Source: a virus. Taken from it: a stretch of 64,000 nt of DNA. The position numbers and the translations under genes were made by a program. Below, in pieces: positions 2,434 to 43,787 of the stretch. Where the stretch lies: positions 32,001 to 96,000 of the IMG/VR virus record IMGVR_UViG_3300025646_005482; one strand, given 5' to 3'. Each line of letters starts with the position of its first letter. Positions within the stretch are counted from its first letter, which is position 1. A model generated the notes under the pieces. That model did no database searches. It worked only from the letters and a program-made list of their open reading frames with translations, and was not told where the DNA came from.

Positions 2434-3501
2434 ATGTCAATTTTATCTAAGTTACAAAAGAATTCAACCATCAAGGATACGGCTATCCTTTCTGAATCAA
2501 AGTTCTTCACGAAGAAGGACATGATTCCTACATCAATTCCTATCATCAACCTCGCCCTCAGTGGTCGGCTAGATGGTGGTCTCACACCTGGTCTCACGAT
2601 GTGGGCAGGTCCCAGCAAACACTTTAAAACTGCTTTCAGCCTTCTCATGGCAAAAGCATACTTGGAGAAATACGAAGAAGCCGCGCTTCTTTTTTATGAC
2701 TCAGAGTTTGGTACGCCGCAAAGTTATTTTACTGCTTTCGGTATTCCTATGGATCGTGTTCTGCATACTCCTGTTACAGATGTCGAGCAACTCAAGTTCG
2801 ATATCATGAAGCAACTCGATAACATTGATCGCGGCGATAAGGTCATCATCATTGTCGATTCTATCGGTAACCTCGCTTCGAAGAAAGAAGTTGAGGATGC
2901 ACTCAACGAGAAAGCTGTTGCAGACATGTCACGTGCTAAACAGATCAAGTCATTGTTCCGTATGGTCACACCACATCTCACCCTCAAAGATATTCCGATG
3001 GTCGTCGTGAACCATACTTACAAAGAAATGGCTCTGTTCCCGAAAGATATCGTTGGTGGTGGTACAGGTTCATACTACTCCGCTGACAACATCTACATCA
3101 TCGGTCGCCAACAAGAGAAAGAAGGCAAAGATGTGGTTGGTTATAACTTCATCATCAATGTGGAGAAATCACGCTATGTTAAAGAAAAGTCTAAGATACC
3201 TGTCACGGTTACTCATAGTGGGGGTATTAGTCGTTGGAGTGGTCTCTTGGACATTGCACTCACGGGAGGATTCGTTGTCAAACCAAGTAATGGCTGGTAC
3301 GCGAGGGTAGATCTTGAAACTGGTGCTGCCGAAGACAAGAAGTTCAGACTCAAAGAAACAGATAGCAAAGATTTTTGGTTGCCAATCGTGACGTCTGAGA
3401 AGTTCAATGAATATATAAAGCAGACATATCAGGTGGGTCACTCCGCTATTATCACAGAAGAAGAGATAGATGACTTCCTCGAAGATACAGTCACTGCATA
3501 A
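2434..3501 (+). CDS. uvsX: RecA-like recombinase UvsX
   Basis: GPSKHFKT Walker A variant, YDSEFG, DSIGNLASKKE, GGGTG; SD AGGAG upstream. Confidence 0.97.
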   Translation: MSILSKLQKNSTIKDTAILSESKFFTKKDMIPTSIPIINLALSGRLDGGLTPGLTMWAGPSKHFKTAFSLLMAKAYLEKYEEAALLFYDSEFGTPQSYFTAFGIPMDRVLHTPVTDVEQLKFDIMKQLDNIDRGDKVIIIVDSIGNLASKKEVEDALNEKAVADMSRAKQIKSLFRMVTPHLTLKDIPMVVVNHTYKEMALFPKDIVGGGTGSYYSADNIYIIGRQQEKEGKDVVGYNFIINVEKSRYVKEKSKIPVTVTHSGGISRWSGLLDIALTGGFVVKPSNGWYARVDLETGAAEDKKFRLKETDSKDFWLPIVTSEKFNEYIKQTYQVGHSAIITEEEIDDFLEDTVTA

Positions 3502-4126
3502 TGAAATAGACAATCTGTTACCTGCATGTAGGTCAGATTTTAAAGAATACAGACCGCATGAATTTATCGAGAATGATGGCGAAAATTGTATTTTACCAAA
3601 TGAATACATTCGTCTATGTCCATGGGAAGCTCGTTATTTGTCGACTGTTGCAAACAGTGCAAAACATGGTATAGTAGAGATAGGCAGATATTACGGTGGA
3701 AGCACGTTAGTTCTTGCTCAGTCAGCAAAAGAACATGTCATTATACATAGCTTTGATAATGAACCTCAAAATGATGATGAGCTAGCTAGTTTTATTGATA
3801 GACTAGGCTACAAAAATATCAATCTCTATGTACACGATTCAACTGATCCAGGTCCCAGTCGCTTTATAGATTATGATTTATTGTTTATTGACGGTGATCA
3901 TACATACGATGGTGTGTACAAAGATCTGGAAGCGTGGTATGATAACCTAATGATTGGTGGTCATGTACTATTTCATGATTGCTATGTTGGTTACTATATA
4001 CAAGAAGCGATAATGGACTTTACGCTCGGACGTAATGTACAATTCTATACATCACCATTCAAAAGTATACAATATTGGTCAAATGATAGTGGTAGTATTT
4101 GCCACTTCAGAAAGCTAGGAGACTAA
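3470..4126 (+). CDS. Class I SAM-dependent methyltransferase (Methyltransf_24-like)
   Basis: VEIGRYYGGST, DLLFIDGDHTYDGV, GGHVLFHD. Confidence 0.85.
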   Translation: MTSSKIQSLHNEIDNLLPACRSDFKEYRPHEFIENDGENCILPNEYIRLCPWEARYLSTVANSAKHGIVEIGRYYGGSTLVLAQSAKEHVIIHSFDNEPQNDDELASFIDRLGYKNINLYVHDSTDPGPSRFIDYDLLFIDGDHTYDGVYKDLEAWYDNLMIGGHVLFHDCYVGYYIQEAIMDFTLGRNVQFYTSPFKSIQYWSNDSGSICHFRKLGD

Positions 4127-5527
4127 ATGTCCGATATCTCTATTGAAAATTTGATTCTTAGTAATCTATTATATGATGAAAACTACATTCGTAGTGTTTT
4201 ACCATTTCTCAAAGAAGAATACTTTGTCAACCACGAACAACGTATCACATTCAATCTCGTAAACAAATACTTTACAAAGTACAATGCATGTCCATCTCGT
4301 GAAGCGCTGAAGATCGAGGTGGATGAGTTGTCTCTCAATACAGATACTCATGCAGCCTGTGTAAAATTTATCGCATCACTCAGTAAAGTGGAGGCTGATA
4401 ATGAGTGGCTGTTGAAGCAGACAGAGAAGTATTGTCAAGACAAAGCAATCTACAACGCCATTATGGAATCGATTCAGGTGATCGATGGGAAGACAGACAA
4501 AGACAAAGGTGCATTACCTCAGATCTTGTCTGATGCACTCGCTGTCTCTTTCGATACTCATATCGGCCACGATTTCCTCGAAGACTTCGAATCACGATAC
4601 GACTTCTATCACAAGAAAGTAGAACGTCAACCATTCGACCTCGATTACTTCAATCGTATTACTCGTGGTGGTATTCCTCGCAAAACACTCAACGTTATCC
4701 TCGCTGGTACTGGTGTAGGTAAGACACTGATGATGTGTCACTTCGCTGCATCGAATCTCATGCAAGGTAAGAACGTATTGTATGTCACCTTAGAAATGGC
4801 CGAAGAGAGGATCGCAGAACGTATCGATGCAAATCTGATGGGCGTACCACTCAATGATCTTGCTACGTATCCAAAAGAAACGTACGAGACCAAACTCAAT
4901 CGTGTCAAAGGCAAGACAGCAGGTAAACTGATCATCAAAGAATATCCTACTGCCTCTGTTGGTAGTGGTCACCTTCGACATCTACTCAATGAATTAAAGT
5001 TGAAGAAGAACTTTATACCTGACATCATATACATCGATTATCTCAATCTATGTGTGTCATCACGCATCCGAATGGGTGCCAATGTCAACACATACTCATA
5101 TGTCAAGGCAATTGCCGAAGAACTAAGAGGACTAGCAGTTGAATTCAACCTACCGATCTTCACAGCAACGCAGACTAATCGAACAGGGTTCACGTCGTCG
5201 GATGTGGGCCTCGAAGACACTAGCGAGTCCTTTGGATTGCCCGCTACTGCAGATTTTATGTTTGCCGCCATCTCTAACGAAGAGCTTGAGAGCCTCGGTC
5301 AACTCCTCATTAAACAGCTCAAGAATCGTTACAACGACCCCGGTCTCCATCGTCGATTTGTCGTCGGTGTCGATAGATCAAGAATGAAGTTGTACGATGT
5401 AGAACAGAAAGCACAAGCTAATGTTGGACCTGACATCGCTGACAAGCCAGTCATGGACAACACAGAGTTTGGTGAAGGTCTGCGCAGAGAACGCGTTGAC
5501 AAAACTATATTTGAAAGTTGGAAATAA
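4127..5527 (+). CDS. 41: Replicative DnaB-like helicase gp41
   Basis: AGTGVGKT Walker A, LEMAEE, IDYLN, ATQTNR, SESFGLPATAD, KQLKNRY. Confidence 0.97.
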   Translation: MSDISIENLILSNLLYDENYIRSVLPFLKEEYFVNHEQRITFNLVNKYFTKYNACPSREALKIEVDELSLNTDTHAACVKFIASLSKVEADNEWLLKQTEKYCQDKAIYNAIMESIQVIDGKTDKDKGALPQILSDALAVSFDTHIGHDFLEDFESRYDFYHKKVERQPFDLDYFNRITRGGIPRKTLNVILAGTGVGKTLMMCHFAASNLMQGKNVLYVTLEMAEERIAERIDANLMGVPLNDLATYPKETYETKLNRVKGKTAGKLIIKEYPTASVGSGHLRHLLNELKLKKNFIPDIIYIDYLNLCVSSRIRMGANVNTYSYVKAIAEELRGLAVEFNLPIFTATQTNRTGFTSSDVGLEDTSESFGLPATADFMFAAISNEELESLGQLLIKQLKNRYNDPGLHRRFVVGVDRSRMKLYDVEQKAQANVGPDIADKPVMDNTEFGEGLRRERVDKTIFESWK

Positions 5528-9775: not shown

Positions 9776-11119
9776 ATGGCTCTAGGCAAGCTTACACCAG
9801 CAGAACTCATCAAGAAAAATAGTAATACGGGCGAGCAGCGTATAGACATTCTCGAGAATGCTATCAAGAAAGGTGTCGCCCTTCCTCTCGTTGACGGTAG
9901 TGAAGTAGTACTCGAAAACTCTAAAGAAAACTTAGATGCGGTCGAAGGTTTCAAAACCGCTGGCAAAGCTTTCGATTTAAAAGTAAAAACTGGTCAAAGA
10001 GTTATCAAATCATCTGATATCGGCAAGTCACCTCTTTTTGGAGGAGGTATAGGCGGTGCAGGTGGTGGTACACAACAAACTGCGATCGTAGAATCAATGC
10101 AGTGTGTTTATCTGCAGGCGATGTTAGATAATCCAAATCAGAATATCGAGTTTTTCACACCGTCAGTGATGAAAAAAGCATATGCTAGGTGCGAAGTAGG
10201 TGGTACTACATTCGACGAGATTCGAGACTTTGATCCGAGTTGGCACGTATCAGCATTCTTATCTGCTGAGATCATTATCAAAAATGGTTATGTCAATAAG
10301 AATCAAGTCTTTCATCGCGATTCAAATACGATGAAGAAGATCTACGCTATGAAGAAAGAGGCATTCAAAAATTCTGGCCTTGACATTCTGACTGATGACA
10401 AGTGGAATCCCGGTGATATATGGGCAGTCGATAAAAACTTTGACGTCAGTAAGATGCGAACCCGCACTATACAAGAATACAACGAAGATATTCTAATGGC
10501 TTTTAAGAGCAGAAAATGTGTTGGTATATCATTGAAGCTAGTAAAAAGAAATGCACGTTTATCTGTATTGAACGACTCAAACGCGCGCCCATCTACACTC
10601 AAATACATAGAATCAAAGACACAAGGTCAACAACGCAATAATACTTTCTACTCTTCTAAAGGCGGTCAGATCATATATTCAGACGGCAAGATGGAGTGTA
10701 GACCAAATTCTCAGTTAGCTGTTATCAAAGCAGAGATTTTAGGCAAGACAGCGAGAGGTGGAGGTGCGAGTTGGGGCGTCATATCAGATATCGTCAAAGA
10801 TGTTGCTAATATAACATTGCCCAATAACTCTGCTATCGTTAACGCAGCAAAAGCAATGAAGCGCGGTGATAAGACAGCGATCAATAAGTTCTGGTTAGAT
10901 GCTAAATTAATTAACAGCAATATCAAAGAAGCAGAATTTAAAGATCAAGTCCCAAAATGTGAGTTAGATTGGATACACGGTAAATATGGTGTATGTACTT
11001 TGTTGAGTACTTTGCAAAGAACAAAAGGTGCTAAAGCAAACGAGATAGTTAACTCTATTCACAACTATGCTGGTAGTCAATCAAAATTATCCAGTGTATA
11101 TGTTAAGGTTTACGAATGA
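9776..11119 (+). CDS. Putative PD-(D/E)XK-like nuclease-fold protein
   Basis: E.MQC...DKWNPGDIW...GISLK arrangement. Confidence 0.45.
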   Translation: MALGKLTPAELIKKNSNTGEQRIDILENAIKKGVALPLVDGSEVVLENSKENLDAVEGFKTAGKAFDLKVKTGQRVIKSSDIGKSPLFGGGIGGAGGGTQQTAIVESMQCVYLQAMLDNPNQNIEFFTPSVMKKAYARCEVGGTTFDEIRDFDPSWHVSAFLSAEIIIKNGYVNKNQVFHRDSNTMKKIYAMKKEAFKNSGLDILTDDKWNPGDIWAVDKNFDVSKMRTRTIQEYNEDILMAFKSRKCVGISLKLVKRNARLSVLNDSNARPSTLKYIESKTQGQQRNNTFYSSKGGQIIYSDGKMECRPNSQLAVIKAEILGKTARGGGASWGVISDIVKDVANITLPNNSAIVNAAKAMKRGDKTAINKFWLDAKLINSNIKEAEFKDQVPKCELDWIHGKYGVCTLLSTLQRTKGAKANEIVNSIHNYAGSQSKLSSVYVKVYE

Positions 11120-12345
11120 AAAAGTTTGATAAGTATATAGTAGAAGCTAAAAATACACACATGGAACATGTGGAGGATCTGATATTCAATGAAGGCGTGG
11201 TTGGTACTAGAAAGGCTATTAATTTCTTACGTGATCTCAGAGATATGCTTGCTGGTAGCAGCAAAAGTAGAATCTCTCGCACCGTTAAATGGGACGGCGC
11301 TCCGGCTGTATTCGCGGGCATTGATCCATCAGACGGAAAGTTTTTCGTCGCTAAAAAGGGAGTATTCAATAAGAATCCTAAAGTCTATAAGACTCCCGCT
11401 GACGTTAAGGCTGATACTAGCGGGGATCTCCAGGCTAAACTACTTGTATCACTCGCCGAATTTAGTAAACTCGGAATCAAAAAAGGTGTATATCAAGGAG
11501 ACTTGATGTTCACAGGCAACGATGTGAAGAAAGAGGATATCGATGGTCAGTCTTATTATACTTTCCAACCTAATACTATTGTTTACGCTGTTCCTGTGGA
11601 CAGTAATCTTGGACGACAGATCGCTCGCGCGAAGATCGGCATCGTATGGCATACCACTTACACTGGTAATTCTTTTGAGTCTATGTCTGCTAGTTTTGGA
11701 AAAGACATCGCTTCTACCTTTAATAATGTAGCAAGCATTTGGCAGACAGACGCCACATATAGAGATGAATCAGGTCGTGCTACATTCACCGAGAAAGAAA
11801 CAGAACAAGTCACAAATTTACTTGCTTCTGTTGGTCGTGTATTCAATAGTACGCCAGCCGATCTCATTAACTATTGGCATGAAAATCCTAAGTTACTCGA
11901 GCTCGTGAAGATATTCAATAATAGTTACGTACGTCAAGGAAAGAGAATTAATCCTCGGACACATACACAAGCATTCATGAACTGGATGACAGATAGATAT
12001 AAGAAAGAAATGGATAAAGTGAAGACTCCTGCCGCGAAAGCAAAGAAGAAGGCAGAGATGAAAGAGACAATGAGAATATTCAGTAAGTTCAACAAAGGTC
12101 AGATTCAGAATGTGTGGACGCTGATGGTACTTCTGTCGGACGCCAAACAGATGATTATAAATAAAATGAATCAAGCTGGTTCACTACGTACATTCTTGCG
12201 AACACGCAACGGATTTAAAGTGACAGCACCAGAGGGTTTCTGCGCTATCGACCACCTCAGCAATGATGCAGTGAAGATAGTAGACAGAATGGAATTTAGT
12301 AAAGCAAACTTTAGTCCCGATATTATTAAGGGTTGGCAAAGATAA
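11116..12345 (+). CDS. Conserved T4-like protein (DUF6267-like) with ligase-type KxDG motif and CTS-like N-terminus
   Basis: MKKFDKYIVEA; KNTHMEHVED; TVKWDGAPA; QGDLMF; PEGF; KIVDRMEFS. Confidence 0.65.
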   Translation: MKKFDKYIVEAKNTHMEHVEDLIFNEGVVGTRKAINFLRDLRDMLAGSSKSRISRTVKWDGAPAVFAGIDPSDGKFFVAKKGVFNKNPKVYKTPADVKADTSGDLQAKLLVSLAEFSKLGIKKGVYQGDLMFTGNDVKKEDIDGQSYYTFQPNTIVYAVPVDSNLGRQIARAKIGIVWHTTYTGNSFESMSASFGKDIASTFNNVASIWQTDATYRDESGRATFTEKETEQVTNLLASVGRVFNSTPADLINYWHENPKLLELVKIFNNSYVRQGKRINPRTHTQAFMNWMTDRYKKEMDKVKTPAAKAKKKAEMKETMRIFSKFNKGQIQNVWTLMVLLSDAKQMIINKMNQAGSLRTFLRTRNGFKVTAPEGFCAIDHLSNDAVKIVDRMEFSKANFSPDIIKGWQR

Positions 12346-16850: not shown

Positions 16851-16858
16851 TATAAATA
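16851..16858 (+). promoter_or_regulatory. T4-type late promoter
   Basis: TATAAATA, intergenic. Confidence 0.85.
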
Positions 16859-16917: not shown

Positions 16918-18279
16918 ATGAAAACTGTAGTCATAGCGTTCGGTCGTATGAATCCTCCTACGATCGGCCACGAAAAATTAGTATCAAAAATACGGACTAC
17001 TGCACGTAAGTATCGTGCGAAGCCTATGCTCTTCTTGTCACATTCACAAGACAAGAAAAAAAATCCTCTCTCATACGAAGACAAAATCCGCTACAGTAAA
17101 AAAGCATTTGGTGCAATGGTAACTAAATCCAATGCACGTACTATTATAGATGTAGCAAAAGACCTTGAGAAACAGTTCGACGAATTAGTTGTTATTGGTG
17201 GTTCGGACCGAGTGTCAGAGTTTCAATCATTATTAGATAGGTATAATGGTAAAGACTATGCTTTCGAAAAGATCACTGTCGTCTCAGCTGGAGAACGTGA
17301 TCCAGACTCAGATGATGTGTCTGGTATGTCAGCATCGAAACTACGATCTCTAGCTCAAACTGGTAAGTTTACAGAGTTTAAGAATGGTCTACCTAAGAAT
17401 CTGCAAAGGGGCAGAGAGGCAAAAGAGATGTACGATACGATAAGAAATGCAGCAGGCATCACTGAAGATATGTCGCTGCAAGAAGTACTCAATATGCAAC
17501 AGCGACTGAAGAAAAAAGCTTTGATGCGTCGACTCAAAGGCAAAATCAAGTTAGGTCGTAGGCGTGCTAAGTTTAGGATTGCGAATCCCGAAAAATTAAG
17601 AAAGAGATCTGCTAAAAAGGCTCGCGAAATCATTCGAGCTCGTATTGCCGGATCTCAAGGCAAAAGTTACAAAGATTTGCCATATGCAGGTCGACAACAA
17701 GTCGATAAACGCGTAGAGAAGAAAAAAGATTTGATCGCACGTCTCGCTAAGCGCATGATGCCTAAAGTCAAGAAGGCAGAGATGGAGCGAGTAAAAAGAA
17801 ATCGTAGCTCGAAGAAAGAAGAGACAGAATTGAATTTGTATCAGATCATCGAACATCTGATCGAAAAGGTAAACATCGAACAAGTTACAGAGAAGGTTGA
17901 GCGTAACCTCCTGAAGAAGAGTGAGAAGCATGGTATCTCATTCGAAGAATTACGCCAGCGTTATATCGATGCCAAAGCAGAATGGGTAATCGAAGACACT
18001 GAGTTGACCGCTGATCAATATGCATTCGATAAGTTGAATCATGATCTCATCAATGAGAAAGGTGAGGATGCAAAAGGTCATAAGCGACCAACAGAAGACG
18101 GTGCAGGATTGACACGAAAAGGTGCAAAAGCACATGGTGTCAAAACTGCAGTCACAACGCCACCATCTAAACTCGACCCCGACGGTGAAGCAGCAGGCAG
18201 ACGAAAGTCTTTCTGTGCTCGCTCACGTAGTTGGACAGGCGAGAGAGGGAAAGCTGCACGACGAAGGTGGAATTGCTAA
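16918..18279 (+). CDS. Cytidylyltransferase/NMNAT-like (HIGH superfamily) domain fused to basic C-terminal modules
   Basis: FGRMNPPTIGH, KNPLS, GSDR, SAGERDPD, MSASKLR; then K/R-rich modules ending RRKSFCAR...RRWNC. Confidence 0.85.
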   Translation: MKTVVIAFGRMNPPTIGHEKLVSKIRTTARKYRAKPMLFLSHSQDKKKNPLSYEDKIRYSKKAFGAMVTKSNARTIIDVAKDLEKQFDELVVIGGSDRVSEFQSLLDRYNGKDYAFEKITVVSAGERDPDSDDVSGMSASKLRSLAQTGKFTEFKNGLPKNLQRGREAKEMYDTIRNAAGITEDMSLQEVLNMQQRLKKKALMRRLKGKIKLGRRRAKFRIANPEKLRKRSAKKAREIIRARIAGSQGKSYKDLPYAGRQQVDKRVEKKKDLIARLAKRMMPKVKKAEMERVKRNRSSKKEETELNLYQIIEHLIEKVNIEQVTEKVERNLLKKSEKHGISFEELRQRYIDAKAEWVIEDTELTADQYAFDKLNHDLINEKGEDAKGHKRPTEDGAGLTRKGAKAHGVKTAVTTPPSKLDPDGEAAGRRKSFCARSRSWTGERGKAARRRWNC

Positions 18280-19082
18280 TGGCAATTTGGAATAAAGACT
18301 CACAAGCGTTTCTGAATAATAATAAGACATTATTCGAAGCTTTTTCAATTGCCGATAAAGACGGTAATATCATGAACACATTTGGTACATCAGCCAATAT
18401 TCCTATTGCTGATGGATCAGTTGCCGGTTATTCAGTAAGAAATATTTTTGGTACTACTGCTGGTGATGCTGACATTGTAACGTCTGAGTTTAGAACACCG
18501 TGGGAACGAGCAAGCAACTATGAGTTTCCATCAGCAGCAAATACGATGTCCTTAGTCAGTACAAGTGGATCTGATACAGCTGTAACAGTTTTGATTTCTG
18601 GACTTGATGAAAACTATCTACCAATTAGCGAAACGAAAACATTGACAGGTACAGCACCGATTACTACAGACAATAGTTATTTTAGAATTAATGACATGAT
18701 TTGTACTGTTGGAAATGCTGTTGGAACTATTACATTATCTATTGGCGCAGATGTTTATTCACAGATTGATCCAGGAAATGGAAGAGATCAAAAAGCAGTA
18801 TATACTGTACCTGCTGGATATTGTTTCTTCTTAACACGAATCGACGCATTTTGTACTGATGCAAATGGTGGTAAGGCAGCACGATTTAGAAACTATTTGC
18901 GCTCTTCAAATGGTAGAGTGTTGAGAGTTGCTGATACAACGTTTTTTGAAAATATGAATATTATGAGACAGGCGCCATTTAAGTACGACCAAAAAACGGA
19001 TATTGAAATGCAATTAAGGTCTTTGTCAGGTTCTACTTTCGGCTCAGTGTTTGCTGAAGGTATACTAGTACAACAAGTATAA
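18279..19082 (+). CDS. Probable virion structural protein (beta-rich)
   Basis: TAATG coupling; Thr/Ser/Gly-rich; GLDENY, FRIN, YTVPAG; in a late operon. Confidence 0.55.
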   Translation: MAIWNKDSQAFLNNNKTLFEAFSIADKDGNIMNTFGTSANIPIADGSVAGYSVRNIFGTTAGDADIVTSEFRTPWERASNYEFPSAANTMSLVSTSGSDTAVTVLISGLDENYLPISETKTLTGTAPITTDNSYFRINDMICTVGNAVGTITLSIGADVYSQIDPGNGRDQKAVYTVPAGYCFFLTRIDAFCTDANGGKAARFRNYLRSSNGRVLRVADTTFFENMNIMRQAPFKYDQKTDIEMQLRSLSGSTFGSVFAEGILVQQV

Positions 19083-19097
19083 CAAACGGACAGATAA

Positions 19098-20720
19098 ATG
19101 AATATCTTCAAAGAATACACAGAAAATCAGAAGCGCGCTAAAGATAAGATCAAGCGTGAGAAAGAAGCTGATAAGGCAAAACATGATCGTATGATGGATC
19201 AAGCTCGTAACCGTGATACTTCTCGAAAGAATACTATGTCTGAGTCAGAGATTCATGTACGTCTCGATCATCTCGATGGTGACTCTCGTCAGAAGAAAGC
19301 TGGTGCTGTCATGCGCAAGCATGAACGAGCAGGTCATATCGAGTATGTTGGCAATACTGATAAAGGTGTTGTATTCAAAGCGAAGAGCAAAGCACACGCT
19401 GACCGACTACACAGAGATCTGAAGCCTCATGCAACTGGTGTTGAGCACATGAGCGAAGCTACTAAGTCAGCACAAGATCCCGATATTAAAGATAGAGAGG
19501 GTACACAACCCGCTGCCTATCATAAAGGTTTAAAGAAAACAACAAAAGCAAAGCGAGATGCACACTTTAAGAAGCACGGTAAGAAAGCAGATGATGATGC
19601 TTCAGCATATAAAGATGCACCTGGCGATAAGAAAGCAAGGAAGGGAGACATGCCTAAGTCAAAGTATACTAAGTTCGTAGATAATATGATGAAGGAAGGT
19701 ACTGACTTCGCTGCTCATCGTGCCGCTAAAGCAACTGCACCTTCAGATTCTGATCGTAAAAAGATGGCGAAGGTAGCAGATCTGATGCGTAAAGAGCGTG
19801 AGAAGAAAGCTGCGATGAAAGAGGGTAAGGTTGATAATCACCCAGAAGTTAGAAAGCTATTTAAGGGTATAGGCAAAACCAAACCGGATAGTTTCGAAAG
19901 AAGGCGTGCGGTTCGTGCTTGGTCAAATAAGCGAAAGGAACTGCATAACGAAGAAGCACAAGTCGATGAAAGTGTATACAAAGGTAAAGATGCATTTGGT
20001 CGTGGTGTGATTGGTAGACTGCGTGGTGGTAAAGCTGGTGCTTATATGGCAAAGAAAGCCAAAGAACGTTCTGATATGAATAAGAAGAACGATCCAGGTT
20101 CAGCGAAGAAAGGTTATGCTCTCAGTGTAACAGACAAAGATAAAGCAATGGCGAAAGCACGAAAGAAAGGTTTGAGCCCTAAGCATCCTACTACTAACTA
20201 TAATAGGAAGCTGCCTGAAGAAGCACAGAAGAAAGATCATCAGACTATTAGCTACGTTACACATGGTGGTCAGAAGGGTAAAGTACAGGTACATAAAGAC
20301 AATGCCTTCAAAGCACTGAATCATTATCGTAAAAATAACAAGAGTGCACAGTTTGAAGCGATGTCACCTGAATCTCGGAAAGCACATGGTCGAATGTTTA
20401 AGGCCGCACAAAAGAAGAAGGATGATTCAGCTGCACAAGCCGACCGCGAAAAGCGATTGAAGGCAAAAGGATGGGTCAAGAACGATCGTGGCGGTATGTC
20501 GAAAGTAACCGAAGAGGGTGATAGTTCATTCGCTGCGAAGGCTGCTAAGTCAGGCATTTCGGTCGGTACCCTGAAGAAGGTATATAATAGAGGAGTTGCT
20601 GCGTGGAAGACAGGTCATCGACCAGGAACTACGCCATCTCAATGGGGTCATGCACGTGTAAATGCGTTCATTGCCAAGAAAAAGAAAGGTGGACTTAACC
20701 ACGACAAAGATCTAGCGTGA
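19098..20720 (+). CDS. Basic modular protein, probable capsid-internal polyprotein
   Basis: MNIFKEYTE N-terminus; modules separated by MSE, MKE, VDE, LPEE, QFE, VTEE; last module KSGIS..LKKVYNRGVAAWKTGHRPG..QWGHARVN. Confidence 0.65.
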   Translation: MNIFKEYTENQKRAKDKIKREKEADKAKHDRMMDQARNRDTSRKNTMSESEIHVRLDHLDGDSRQKKAGAVMRKHERAGHIEYVGNTDKGVVFKAKSKAHADRLHRDLKPHATGVEHMSEATKSAQDPDIKDREGTQPAAYHKGLKKTTKAKRDAHFKKHGKKADDDASAYKDAPGDKKARKGDMPKSKYTKFVDNMMKEGTDFAAHRAAKATAPSDSDRKKMAKVADLMRKEREKKAAMKEGKVDNHPEVRKLFKGIGKTKPDSFERRRAVRAWSNKRKELHNEEAQVDESVYKGKDAFGRGVIGRLRGGKAGAYMAKKAKERSDMNKKNDPGSAKKGYALSVTDKDKAMAKARKKGLSPKHPTTNYNRKLPEEAQKKDHQTISYVTHGGQKGKVQVHKDNAFKALNHYRKNNKSAQFEAMSPESRKAHGRMFKAAQKKKDDSAAQADREKRLKAKGWVKNDRGGMSKVTEEGDSSFAAKAAKSGISVGTLKKVYNRGVAAWKTGHRPGTTPSQWGHARVNAFIAKKKKGGLNHDKDLA

Positions 20721-20727
20721 GGAAATT

Positions 20728-21033
20728 ATGGCAGATTTGAAAGACACAGCTCAAATTCAAGGATTGATGAGCGCGGTGAAAGATATTATGGCAGGTAATC
20801 AAAACCTGTATCAACAAGATTTAGAACGACAATTTAATTTTCCTGGTGGTATGGCGCCAGTAGAGGAACCAGTAGATGTTAGCGGAAGCGATACAGAGAC
20901 AGAAGTTGCAGTCAGCGGCGAAGAGCCTATCGAAGCTAGCGCGGAGCTCGACGTCAGTGCGGAGAGTGATGCAGAAGATGCAGTCGGGGAAGTTGCCGAC
21001 GAAGCAGGATCTGAAATCGATCAAGGGCGCTGA
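20728..21033 (+). CDS. Acidic low-complexity protein (scaffold/core-like)
   Basis: SD GAGGA; E/D-rich C-terminal half. Confidence 0.6.
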   Translation: MADLKDTAQIQGLMSAVKDIMAGNQNLYQQDLERQFNFPGGMAPVEEPVDVSGSDTETEVAVSGEEPIEASAELDVSAESDAEDAVGEVADEAGSEIDQGR

Positions 21034-22387
21034 GCAAGACGATGTAGTCATGGCTCTGACCAAGGCGATTGGTCCTGACGAAGCAATCAAATTGCTTGAG
21101 ATGTGTGATATGTCTAAACACGCTGAGAAACTTGTGTCTGCGAAAGGCAATCCTGATGGTCCGCTTCCAAAGTGGGGCGAGCCAGGTGGTGTAGAAGATG
21201 CATTGAAGAAAACACCTGGTCAAAAGAAAAAGAAAGTTGTGGAAGAAGTGAAGACAATCAAAGTTGGCGAGGATGCCGTAGGTGCAGATAACTGTCACTA
21301 TGCACTCGTCATGGATAGAAAAGTCACTGCAACCGGTACGAAAGACGAGATGCTGGCGAAGTGCAAAAAGGAGGGAGGCCGAGTTTGGGTGTCTACTAAA
21401 AACGTTGGAGATGTAGTAGAAGAAGCTGAATTGCGACACATACTACGATATATTCCTGATCCTGAAGCAATTCAAGAAGCAGAGTATCATGTCACACGTC
21501 CAGGCGGATCATTAAGTAAACCTGATAGTGTACATAAGAATAAGTCAGAAGCAATGAAAGCTGCGTACAGACTGTCTAAGAATAAGCACATGGGTGCTAA
21601 AGGTGGTCAAGTGTATCGAGTACATAATGGCGAAGTTACTCATGGTTTTGACACTGAAGGTCGTTCGCGGCACCTCGGTCTCGATCATGCTAAAGTAACC
21701 GGCAAGAAGCCTATCAAAGAGATGGGCCAAATGAGTCATGGTAATCCGCTTCATACTTCTAATGCTGGAAAAAACCGTACCGCTACATCTAAATCGATGG
21801 CAGCTGCTGGTAAAAAGAGAAAAACTTTAGACAAATTAGAAAAAAAGATGGTCGCACTCAAGAGAAAAAAGAGGGCATTCAGAAGAGATATGTATGAAGC
21901 AAAGTTTGCTGTTGACATTGAAGGCATGCCTCGTTTCTATATGGATTCGGATTCACCAGCAAAAGTCAAGATAGCGTTACGAAATATGCTGAAGAAAGCA
22001 TCGGCTGTCAAGAGTGTTACTCGTACATATGATACGAACATCAAGGCTGATCTGAGACAGCGTCTGAAAGATGCGAGTACAGATATGCATACTAATTACG
22101 TATCAGAGAAGTTAAAGCCGTCCGATGACATGGGTGATTGGGTCGACGACTTCAAAAAATCAGATGCACCACAATTTAAGGGTAAGTCAATGGAAAAGAG
22201 ACGACAAATGGCCATCGCTGCTAAACTGTCTGCGATGCGAGAAGGTTGGAAATCAGATTCAGGTTGGAAGAAAGTTTCTGGTCCTCGCAAAGACGAGTAC
22301 GGCAATACGGTTAAGAAACAAAACATTGCTAAGCACCTTGCTAAAAAAGCAATGAACAAGACGAAAGCAATGGGAGAAAAGAAATGA
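20876..22387 (+). CDS. Basic modular protein, probable capsid-internal polyprotein
   Basis: ATG 20876 with GAGGA at 20863-20867; modules separated by LAE, LLE, VEE, IQE, IKE, MYE, VSE, MRE. Confidence 0.65.
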   Translation: MLAEAIQRQKLQSAAKSLSKLARSSTSVRRVMQKMQSGKLPTKQDLKSIKGAEQDDVVMALTKAIGPDEAIKLLEMCDMSKHAEKLVSAKGNPDGPLPKWGEPGGVEDALKKTPGQKKKKVVEEVKTIKVGEDAVGADNCHYALVMDRKVTATGTKDEMLAKCKKEGGRVWVSTKNVGDVVEEAELRHILRYIPDPEAIQEAEYHVTRPGGSLSKPDSVHKNKSEAMKAAYRLSKNKHMGAKGGQVYRVHNGEVTHGFDTEGRSRHLGLDHAKVTGKKPIKEMGQMSHGNPLHTSNAGKNRTATSKSMAAAGKKRKTLDKLEKKMVALKRKKRAFRRDMYEAKFAVDIEGMPRFYMDSDSPAKVKIALRNMLKKASAVKSVTRTYDTNIKADLRQRLKDASTDMHTNYVSEKLKPSDDMGDWVDDFKKSDAPQFKGKSMEKRRQMAIAAKLSAMREGWKSDSGWKKVSGPRKDEYGNTVKKQNIAKHLAKKAMNKTKAMGEKK

Positions 22388-22536
22388 AGAAGTTCAAGGA
22401 TTTTGTAACGGAGAAGAAAGAATTGTCTCCTGCACAGAAGAAGCATCTTGATGTAGATGATGATAACGACATTGACGCAGCAGATTTTAAGAAGCTGCGA
22501 GCGAAGAAAGAGAAAGCTGTCAAGGATGACGACTAA
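22384..22536 (+). CDS. 50-aa protein with CTS-like N-terminus and EF-hand-like loop (not in ORF track)
   Basis: MKKFKDFVTE-KKELSPAQKKHLDVDDDNDIDAADFKKLRAKK; ATGA overlap. Confidence 0.75.
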   Translation: MKKFKDFVTEKKELSPAQKKHLDVDDDNDIDAADFKKLRAKKEKAVKDDD

Positions 22537-43351: not shown

Positions 43352-43560
43352 CTAAGCAGGAAACAGCTGCTCGCGAGTTCGGTAACCTCATGGACCATTA
43401 CTTCGCGTATGATGATTTTCACCTCGGAGTATTTCCTCTGATGAAGAGAACACGTGGCCGTGAGGATGCTGTAGAAAATACAGCTTGGCATGAGTTTGAA
43501 GCTAGACTGCTTGATCTGATATTGAAGCAAATACCACCGGAGTATCCAAACGAGCTATGA
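43348..43560 (+). CDS. Hypothetical protein
   Basis: ATGA overlap. Confidence 0.6.
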   Translation: MTKQETAAREFGNLMDHYFAYDDFHLGVFPLMKRTRGREDAVENTAWHEFEARLLDLILKQIPPEYPNEL

Positions 43561-43787
43561 GAATCTTCAAGGAATTAACAGAGTGGCCTGACGTTGAGTA
43601 CAATGTACCCAACCACACTTATGCTGTCAATGATGCAGGGAAGTGTGTAGGCTACGTCAAGACTGGTACCTCAGAATGGATATTCTTTGCTAAGCCCCGT
43701 ATGTTTGACAGGGCCCGCCGCAAGTTTATCCAGCTCAAGTCAGGAAATTTAGTAAATCTTTTTGAAAAAAACTATGTACAATACTAA
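43557..43787 (+). CDS. Hypothetical protein
   Basis: ELTEW....PNHTY...FDRARRKF. Confidence 0.7.
   Translation: MRIFKELTEWPDVEYNVPNHTYAVNDAGKCVGYVKTGTSEWIFFAKPRMFDRARRKFIQLKSGNLVNLFEKNYVQY

Follow-up and report, generated by a model that had tools for sequence, protein, structure and literature searches.

Results

Gene content of the region

The window analyzed here, 64,000 nucleotides in length, comprises bases 32001-96000 of a 160,330-bp virus genome (IMG/VR record IMGVR_UViG_3300025646_005482), which we assign to a T4-like marine myophage of 160 kb. Its region from 16918 to 22536 (window coordinates) carries three open reading frames (ORFs), 16918, 19098, and 20876, whose products are chains of small basic modules that meet at glutamate residues. 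ORF 16918 encodes 453 amino acids (aa) and begins directly at an enzyme domain (MKTVVIAFGR). ORF 19098 encodes 540 aa and has DUF5824 as its C terminus. The parts of the three proteins are as follows (a slash marks a joint; "model" refers to predicted structure).

16918 to 17466, + strand: ORF 16918 residues 1-183, NMNAT/cytidylyltransferase-like domain, ends ITE183/D (phrog_3041, 8.3e-67; phrog_395, 1.8e-40)
17467 to 18279, + strand: ORF 16918 residues 184-453, tail with a basic segment followed by DUF5824-like and DUF6321-like stretches
19098 to 19124, + strand: ORF 19098 residues 1-9, leader MNIFKEYTE/N, like the T4 capsid-targeting sequence MKTYQEFIAE
19125 to 19244, + strand: module A1, residues 10-49, ends MSE49/S; one long helix (model)
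19245 to 19457, + strand: module A2, residues 50-120, ends MSE120/A; small alpha/beta ferredoxin-like unit (model; predicted local distance difference test score [pLDDT], 69-79)
19458 to 19697, + strand: module A3, residues 121-200, ends MKE200/G; the most widespread module, with 37 high-scoring segment pairs (HSPs) ending at residue 200
19698 to 19823, + strand: module A4, residues 201-242, ends MKE242/G; Glu precedes A4 in 9/9 contexts
19824 to 19970, + strand: module A5, residues 243-291, terminates in the acidic connector EEAQVDE291/S
19971 to 20219, + strand: module A6, residues 292-374, ends LPE374/E; net charge +16; Glu precedes A6 in 12/12 contexts
20220 to 20357, + strand: module A7, residues 375-420, ends QFE420/A; beta-hairpin plus helix (model); Glu precedes A7 in 21/23 contexts
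20358 to 20513, + strand: module A8, residues 421-472, ends VTE472/E; E472 nearly invariant
20514 to 20720, + strand: module A9, residues 473-540 plus stop codon, C-terminal half of DUF5824; helical, pLDDT 80-91
20876 to 22387, + strand: ORF 20876, polyprotein of ~445-503 aa, with candidate starts at 20876, 20969, 20978, and 21050

The proteins are chains of exchangeable basic modules

An initial annotation of this DNA, made from the sequence alone, described the proteins as strings of K/R/H-rich modules. Both composition and homology agree with that description: K, R, and H together account for 24.9% of 16918, 29.6% of 19098, and 24.1% of 20876, and breaks in homology divide the chains into discrete units. 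These modules are 19-151 aa in length, most of them 40-85 aa, and all have a pI of 8.0-11.5 apart from short leaders and spacers. A search of 5.8 billion proteins recovered at least 3,000 relatives of 19098, 862 of 20876, and at least 1,346 shorter ones. Break points, taken as the ends of BLASTP HSPs against 347 homologues, fall in 19098 at residues 49, 120, 200, 242, 291, 374, 420, and 472, and in 16918 at residue 183. The joints of 20876 lie after residues 124/125, 182, 201, 282, 341, 411, and 456 (nucleotides 21247/21250, 21421, 21478, 21721, 21898, 22108, and 22243).

Most of the junctions proposed in the initial annotation coincide with such breaks (MSE, MKE twice, VDE, LPE[E], VTE[E], VEE twice, IKE, MYE, VSE, MRE, and ITE). 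Few HSPs end at IQE201 and LLE75 of 20876, LAE4 of the same protein may precede the true start, and LQE189 and INE380 of 16918 lie where homology is unbroken; QFE420 of 19098 was missing from that list.

As the initial annotation had predicted, module order varies among the relatives. When the homologues were annotated with the modules of the window (B1 to B7 being those of 20876), dozens of architectures emerged in which units are deleted, reordered, duplicated, or relocated between neighboring genes. Some proteins are collinear from A1 to A9, also with single modules missing or replaced, and others read A1-A3-A2-A9, enzyme-A3-A1-A9 (as in HTVC008M gp130), or A3-A9-x-A2-x-B5. Modules of 19098 and 20876 are mixed, at 79-100% identity, in 800-aa proteins of the form B1-B2-A3-A2-A8-B3-B5-B6-A4-A7-B7, and A7 is 98-100% identical to a copy inside several 20876-type proteins. 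The homologues do not align end to end; their HSPs break into blocks with fixed ends, and the block boundaries coincide with the Glu sites.

Exchange also appears to occur between adjacent genes. In the syntenic loci L004 and L006, the slot of 19098 is occupied by a gene of 116-121 aa that holds only the leader, A1, and A9, and the neighboring 20876-type gene encodes 883-893 aa. Database proteins of this large type (P0031-P0038, 800-890 aa) carry A2, A3, A7, A8, and sometimes A4. A slot reduced to A1 and A9 beside large genes of a block-bearing type therefore suggests that blocks of modules move from one gene to the next.

The DUF5824 match of 19098 covers residues 482-537 and profile positions 64-124 (PF19141; 1e-15; 58.4 bits against a cutoff of 25). 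Mapped through the relatives P0077 and P0233, A3 (19458-19697) corresponds to profile positions 1-63 and A9 (20514-20717) to positions 64-127. By these alignments, the 127 positions of Pfam DUF5824 combine two modules that can occur apart, A3 and A9, which are adjacent in many proteins and 272 aa apart in ORF 19098. Domains of the A9 type also occur as many stand-alone genes of 76-130 aa.

Glutamate marks the joints

Among modules with a cleanly defined start (A2, A4, A6, A7, A8, B5, and B6), Glu occupies the position just before the joint (P1) in 90 of 98 distinct upstream contexts (background, 6.4%; binomial p ~5e-97). This holds whatever module or unassigned sequence lies upstream (e.g., MMKE/G, EQADE/G, GLKKE/G, ETVPE/G, KMTQE/E, YWKE/E, and MYPE/A). 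When all 243 contexts are counted, Glu lies within positions -3 to +1 in 84%. At P3, V, M, L, or I is found in 45% of contexts versus 17% in the background (V, 15%; M, 15%; L, 8%; I, 7%), and P1' is E, A, G, or S. In an unbiased, ungapped all-versus-all comparison limited to HSPs that end within both proteins and beyond which the sequences diverge, Glu is the last aligned residue in 27%. Each of the seven [ILVM]xE motifs in 19098 coincides with a joint, leaving none within a module, and in 20876 this is true of 10 of 13. The joint architecture is real and highly nonrandom.

Both Glu codons are used at the joints and the neighboring codons vary, and selection therefore acts at the amino acid level. 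Recombination microhomology was considered as a source of the joint Glu and is ruled out by the same use of both codons with differing neighbors. Some family joints have an acidic EEVEQVDE-type connector (129 matches versus 9 in shuffled sequences), of which the window has one, EEAQVDE291/S.

The head proteins of the phage served as an internal control. In gp23, five of seven [ILVM]xE motifs are within the first 58 residues, and LSE58/T aligns with the T4 site LTE/A; the motif occurs 25 times in the scaffold gp22 (14.8 expected) and 14 times in gp21 (6.1 expected). In these proteins, the motif is densest where cutting would be expected from what is known of T4.

A prohead protease and capsid-targeting-like leaders

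The genome encodes a head module of the T4 type (Portal_T4, Peptidase_S77, the T4_CASP scaffold family, and Gp23). Its gp21-family prohead protease (Peptidase_S77; E=3.8e-37; 128 bits, cutoff 27) lies at genome positions 144523-145188, between the portal and scaffold genes, and Peptidase_S77 was found in each of four isolate genomes with related genes. The N terminus of this gp21 is MKLIKEINE/T. Outside the window, at genome positions 143326-146301 (locus L013), three small ORFs of 80, 237, and 79 aa lie between the portal gene and gp21, in the position of T4 gp67 and gp68; [ILVM]xE is overrepresented in the 237-aa ORF and in the scaffold.

The leader of 19098, MNIFKEYTE/N, resembles the T4 capsid-targeting sequence MKTYQEFIAE, which is removed by gp21 (PMC8442874, PMC9026906). 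A leader of this kind is also present in the small gene 22384 and in stand-alone members of the family, where DUF5824 genes of 76-90 aa consist of leader and domain alone (MLKFKQYIEE/, MIRFNQYISE/, and MISFKKYLEE/); long family proteins bear a similar one (e.g., MKGFSQYIAE/). Orthologues of the 16918 enzyme begin with MKKFSAFLKE/A, MKKFSAFLNE/A, and MKNIKDILE/A (P-SSM4, S-SM1, and DLP_6, respectively). The podophage DUF5824 protein HTVC202P gp56 has no such leader, and the leader is therefore tied to the T4-type setting rather than to the DUF5824 domain.

Similar N termini occur elsewhere in the window. A DUF6267 ligase-like protein at 11116-12345 (5e-108) has a 10-residue add-on, MKKFDKYIVE/A, ahead of the Pfam profile, which begins at residue 13; by its residues, this add-on is a near-perfect T4-type capsid-targeting leader. 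A 76-aa ORF at 43557-43787 with no family match begins MRIFKELTE/W, which is likewise capsid targeting-like.

In the AlphaFold2 (AF2) model of 19098 (mean pLDDT, 60), the protein consists of separate small units, and six of the eight joints lie in stretches with pLDDT below 50, which make up 32% of residues (binomial estimate, roughly p=0.02). Foldseek comparison of this model with the PDB gave weak generic ferredoxin-fold matches at best (top E=0.065), and in the ESM Atlas DUF5824 clusters alone, with all members viral. The model of 20876 has folded islands at residues 128-173 and 202-259.

Links to virions and to possible host-directed functions

The enzyme domain of 16918 matches 574 phage records, mostly cyanophage proteins annotated as the "cytitidyltransferase" T4-GC190, which are 41-47% identical to residues 1-183 (E, 1e-34 to 1e-39). 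Sullivan et al. (2010) found this core "citidylyltransferase" in purified S-SM1 virions (PMC3037559), and the S-SM1 protein begins MKKFSAFLNE/A. T4-GC190 was also reported in virions of S-CREM2 (3 peptides), S-SCSM1, and S-CBWM1, with a warning by the authors of possible carryover (PMC10665884, PMC9602691). HSP ends cluster at residue 183 of 16918, and an h-x-E motif is present at the equivalent domain end in five homologues of the enzyme.

A DUF5824 module also occurs in a capsid protein. In the 29-kb Roseobacter phage CRP-701 (locus L015), an 874-aa "major capsid protein" gene (2599-5223) is a fusion of an N-terminal domain, DUF5824 (residues 133-183; 26.5 bits), Peptidase_S78 (317-412), and an HK97-type Phage_capsid domain (594-865). 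Within a protease-capsid protein, this DUF5824 must therefore sit inside the procapsid.

Apart from the enzyme domain, the modules of the window match no family of known function in Pfam, PHROG, or NCBIfam, and in the same databases DUF5824 and a weak DUF6321 are the only matches beyond the cytidylyltransferase-like domain. Relatives outside the window (P0233, P0206, P0077, and P0201) carry other modules in the same chains as the DUF5824 modules. Modules above the Pfam cutoffs in relatives are ArfA, the SutA RNA polymerase (RNAP)-binding domain, HNH_3, DUF3008, and Zeta_toxin, and those of the ArfA, SutA, HNH, and Zeta_toxin types hint at host-directed roles. In the searchable literature, DUF5824 was mentioned nowhere, and no account of capsid-targeting leaders or polyproteins in marine T4-like phages was found.

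The enzyme domain and tail of ORF 16918

The enzyme domain has a HIGH-type motif (PTIGHEKL, with TIGHEKL at residues 15-21). Its scores are below the cutoffs of PF01467 (18.1 bits; cutoff, 21) and TIGR00125 (20.3; cutoff, 27.7), and a sequence search of the PDB with this domain matched no solved structure. Residues 184-302 of the tail have a net charge of +31, a pI of 11.5, and no internal [ILVM]xE. Residues 303-453, of which phrog_10346 matches 333-453 (2.1e-12), contain a divergent DUF5824-like stretch (327-381) and a DUF6321-like end (396-442) that falls below the gathering score of PF19846 (E=0.0019; 19.2 bits against 28.5). The module said in the initial annotation to be common to 16918 and 19098 corresponds to a match with A9 that is present but weak (24% identity over 55 aa; pairwise E=2e-4).

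At the very end of 16918, 37 residues (18169-18279) share 76% identity with an ORF of the T7-like cyanophage S-TIP28 and resemble the C terminus of HTVC008M gp131, with which the C terminus of 16918 shares the motif RRKSFCAR. Judged by these similarities, the DUF6321-like end module crosses phage morphotypes.

Genome context, promoter, and neighboring genes

The closest cultured relatives of the phage are Pelagibacter phage HTVC008M, Phage C48C1, and Methylophilales Melnitz phages, all of which are T4-like myophages. A megablast search of the region against 50,697 phage records gave zero nucleotide-level matches. Other features of the region are as follows.

16851 to 16858, + strand: T4-type late-promoter match TATAAATA, 60 nucleotides (nt) 5' of the 16918 ATG, in a 70-nt gap
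18279 to 19082, + strand: intervening gene, not a polyprotein (phrog_8198, 6e-44), with leader MAIWNKDSQAFLNNNKTLFE/A
20728 to 21033, + strand: acidic 101-aa protein, in all cases preceding the large polyprotein, conserved in L003, L004, L006, and L009
22384 to 22536, + strand: 50-aa gene, leader MKKFKDFVTE/K plus a 40-aa charged payload, conserved in L003

The 70-nt gap is the only sizeable intergenic gap, as the genes from 16918 to 22536 are separated by at most 15 nt or overlap. The late-promoter match within it precedes the cluster, in agreement with the initial annotation, and the next + strand match to TATAAATA does not occur before 33871. Transcriptome papers on pelagiphages and cyanophages gave no timing for these genes.

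The intervening gene is kept at the same position in the related loci L003 and L004, and its N terminus matches positions 1-34 of phrog_1645 ("virion structural protein"; 2.3e-5). Its leader is conserved in the L004 homologue, and the remainder of that protein differs. MAIWNKDSQAFLNNNKTLFE/A may be a second kind of targeting propeptide with a gp21-type end site.

The acidic protein encoded at 20728 had no family match in Pfam, PHROG, or NCBIfam. Its gene overlaps the long 20876 frame by 158 nt, with both frames open and conserved in L003, L004, and L006; in the divergent L009, the acidic gene and the polyprotein gene are adjacent, separate, and nonoverlapping. A frameshift joining the two frames was considered, and the four close loci (~89% identical in DNA) are too similar to distinguish which frame is selected. 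The N terminus of the 22384 product matches the start of P0036, which then runs into modules A6 to A9.

Discussion

We propose that 16918, 19098, and 20876 encode capsid cargo polyproteins that are cut at their Glu joints by the gp21 homologue of this phage, and we assign this reading a probability of about 65%. Packaging, cleavage, ejection, and any role of these proteins are what we infer from the features described above. The cluster genes would be transcribed late from the TATAAATA site at 16851. The 19098 product would be built into the prohead core by way of its 9-residue T4-like leader, and the others would enter by an unspecified route. The gp21-family prohead protease would then cut after each joint Glu, yielding ~20 basic peptides of roughly 4-10 kDa and an enzyme of roughly 21 kDa, and, like the internal proteins of T4, these fragments would remain with the packaged DNA and exit the capsid together with it upon infection. 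With a self-contained cut site at every joint, modules could be added, dropped, reordered, or moved between genes without harm to their neighbors, and a single leader could load many cargoes. The most likely roles would be neutralization of DNA charge and early manipulation of the host; the nucleic acid-binding or antidefense role put forward in the initial annotation draws no support from the tests made here.

This mechanism is partly supported. The shuffling, the Glu joints, the protease, the leaders, and the promoter match speak for it, but several observations weigh against it. The sites do not follow the strict (I/L)-X-E rule assumed in the initial annotation: P3 is mostly M or V, a departure from T4, QFE420 lacks an aliphatic P3, and strict [IL]xE is not enriched over shuffled sequences (5 versus 4.5, 1 versus 1.4, and 4 versus 2.7 expected). 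The broader [ILVM]xE is enriched, about 2-fold, only in 20876 (p=0.003). On counts alone, the finding would have been discarded, as strict [IL]xE is at shuffle level and only positions relative to homology breaks are informative. Neither 16918 nor 20876 has a capsid-targeting-like leader. Joint 200 of 19098 is modeled within a helix, and the AF2 model of 20876 (mean pLDDT, 50) is too poor to judge the exposure of its joints. Podophages that lack a gp21-type protease also have DUF5824-like and DUF6321-like modules, and the modules are therefore independent of the T4 head. The TATAAATA matches in the window (10 versus 4.95 expected) are not significantly enriched, since 10 was reached in 5 of 100 shuffles. 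Finally, detection of the enzyme in S-CREM2 virions was by 3 peptides, for which the authors allow carryover (PMC10665884).

The departure of P3 from the T4 rule, the helical joint 200, and the missing leaders on 16918 and 20876 would be expected if the proteins were never cleaved, i.e., if they were long multidomain basic proteins with modules like beads on a string, serving, for example, in DNA condensation or as scaffolds of a nucleoid or replication factory. The joint Glu would then be a structural cap or a by-product of module recombination. We consider this unlikely: one invariant residue with a hydrophobic P3 recurs across ~25 module adjacencies, which is like a protease site and unlike a flexible linker, [ILVM]xE is absent within the modules of 19098, and the same modules occur as stand-alone genes behind a leader with the same end motif. 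Nor are the joint codons conserved. Cleavage by some other Glu-specific protease, of host or phage origin, acting in the cytoplasm on proteins that are never packaged appears less probable still: the Pfam and PHROG searches revealed no further candidate protease in the cluster, the leaders are similar to the capsid-targeting sequence of T4, virions contain orthologues of the enzyme (PMC3037559), and DUF5824 is fused to a protease-capsid gene.

The proteins might instead be loaded and cut by gp21 and yet be parts of the assembly machinery (core or scaffold fillers or size determinants) rather than injected effectors, with fragments that are expelled or that purely neutralize DNA charge. The T4 core proteins gp22, gp67, and gp68 are cut to many fragments (PMC9026906), the scaffold of this phage is likewise rich in the motif, and the modules in the window are plainly basic and match neither an enzymatic nor a known binding family. 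Against this stand the module turnover and shuffling seen between close relatives, which are extreme and fit accessory cargo better, and the modules of relatives that match host-machinery binders and enzymes (ArfA-like, the SutA RNAP-binding domain, HNH, and Zeta_toxin) above Pfam cutoffs; folded, sequence-conserved modules such as A2 and A9 also suggest specific functions. We regard this alternative, too, as improbable, and continue with the reading of the proteins as injected, gp21-processed cargo.

Relation to known systems

Like the internal proteins of T4, the proteins described here are basic, belong to a T4-type phage with a gp21-family protease in its genome, and have Glu sites with a hydrophobic P3 (here as a motif only). 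A leader of ~10 residues, M-K-x-(F/Y)-x-x-(F/Y)-(I/L)-x-E, is a feature of the T4 proteins that 19098, 22384, and the stand-alone family members resemble but 16918 and 20876 do not, and in close relatives the cargo is variable and the leader conserved. They differ in that many modules are chained here behind one leader or none, with a site-like joint between each and exchange at the joints, in that P3 is mostly M/V rather than the L/I of T4, and in that packaging and cleavage are here predicted from sequence. We found no Pfam, PHROG, or NCBIfam match of these proteins to the T4 internal-protein families (IPI, IPII, and IPIII).

The polyvalent proteins of phages and conjugative elements that Iyer et al. 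(2017) reportedly described are large multidomain proteins said to accompany the DNA and to set free several effectors, some of these by proteolysis, and to have large enzymatic domains and often an embedded peptidase. Unlike the present proteins, they are not known to be made of basic modules of 40-85 aa at prohead-protease-type sites.

T4 Alt offers a parallel for the enzyme. In T4, this enzyme is carried as head cargo and is trimmed by gp21 (PMC9026906), and T4-GC190, with its leader ending L-x-E/A, is present in cyanophage virions (PMC3037559). The enzyme here is, however, an NMNAT/cytidylyltransferase-like nucleotidyltransferase rather than an ADP-ribosyltransferase, and that of 16918 has lost its leader and bears a 270-aa basic modular tail. 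Cyanophage T4-GC190 is homologous to residues 1-183 of 16918 and likewise lies upstream of modular basic proteins, but it has an N-terminal leader of ~80 aa and a different, nonbasic C-terminal domain. A polyprotein reading of T4-GC190 was not found in the searchable papers (PMC3037559, PMC10665884, and PMC9602691 among them).

Cut rules differ among phages, gp21 recognizing L/I-X-E and the proteases of giant phages S/A-X-E (PMC9026906). The inner-body and ejection proteins of phiKZ, 201phi2-1, and SPN3US are cut at S/A-X-E by a gp21-like protease (PMC9026906, PMC5694885, PMC10052503). As proposed here, many head proteins of these giant phages are cut after Glu with few other determinants, at multiple, redundant sites, and the products remain with the DNA and leave by ejection. 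In contrast to the modules described above, most are single large proteins that shed propeptides rather than small interchangeable units, and the P3 preference differs.

Implications

The textbook example of proteins that enter the host with phage DNA is the set of T4 internal proteins, but each of these is a single protein, and they are known from a few coliphages. It is possible, although we hold this more tentatively than the cargo reading itself and put it at somewhat below even odds, that T4-like phages of the ocean (pelagi-, methylo-, and cyanomyophages) share a general plug-and-play system of head cargo, in which any small protein placed between Glu joints behind one leader may be loaded, cut free, and injected. 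In such a system, the joints may double as recombination-safe boundaries, so that effector modules may be traded freely between genes and genomes. Candidate effectors in relatives include ArfA mimics, mimics of the SutA RNAP-binding domain, HNH proteins, zeta-type kinases, and NMNAT-like enzymes. In small HK97-type phages, fusion of modules to the protease-capsid gene may be another way to the same result.

If the proposal is true, some of the most abundant myophages of the sea carry a large and fast-changing set of injected peptides. It is directly testable in existing virion mass spectrometry data, and it would explain the mosaic look of hundreds of "hypothetical" basic ORFs. The combination of a leader and Glu joints would then be a simple rule for spotting virion cargo in the genomes of uncultured phages.

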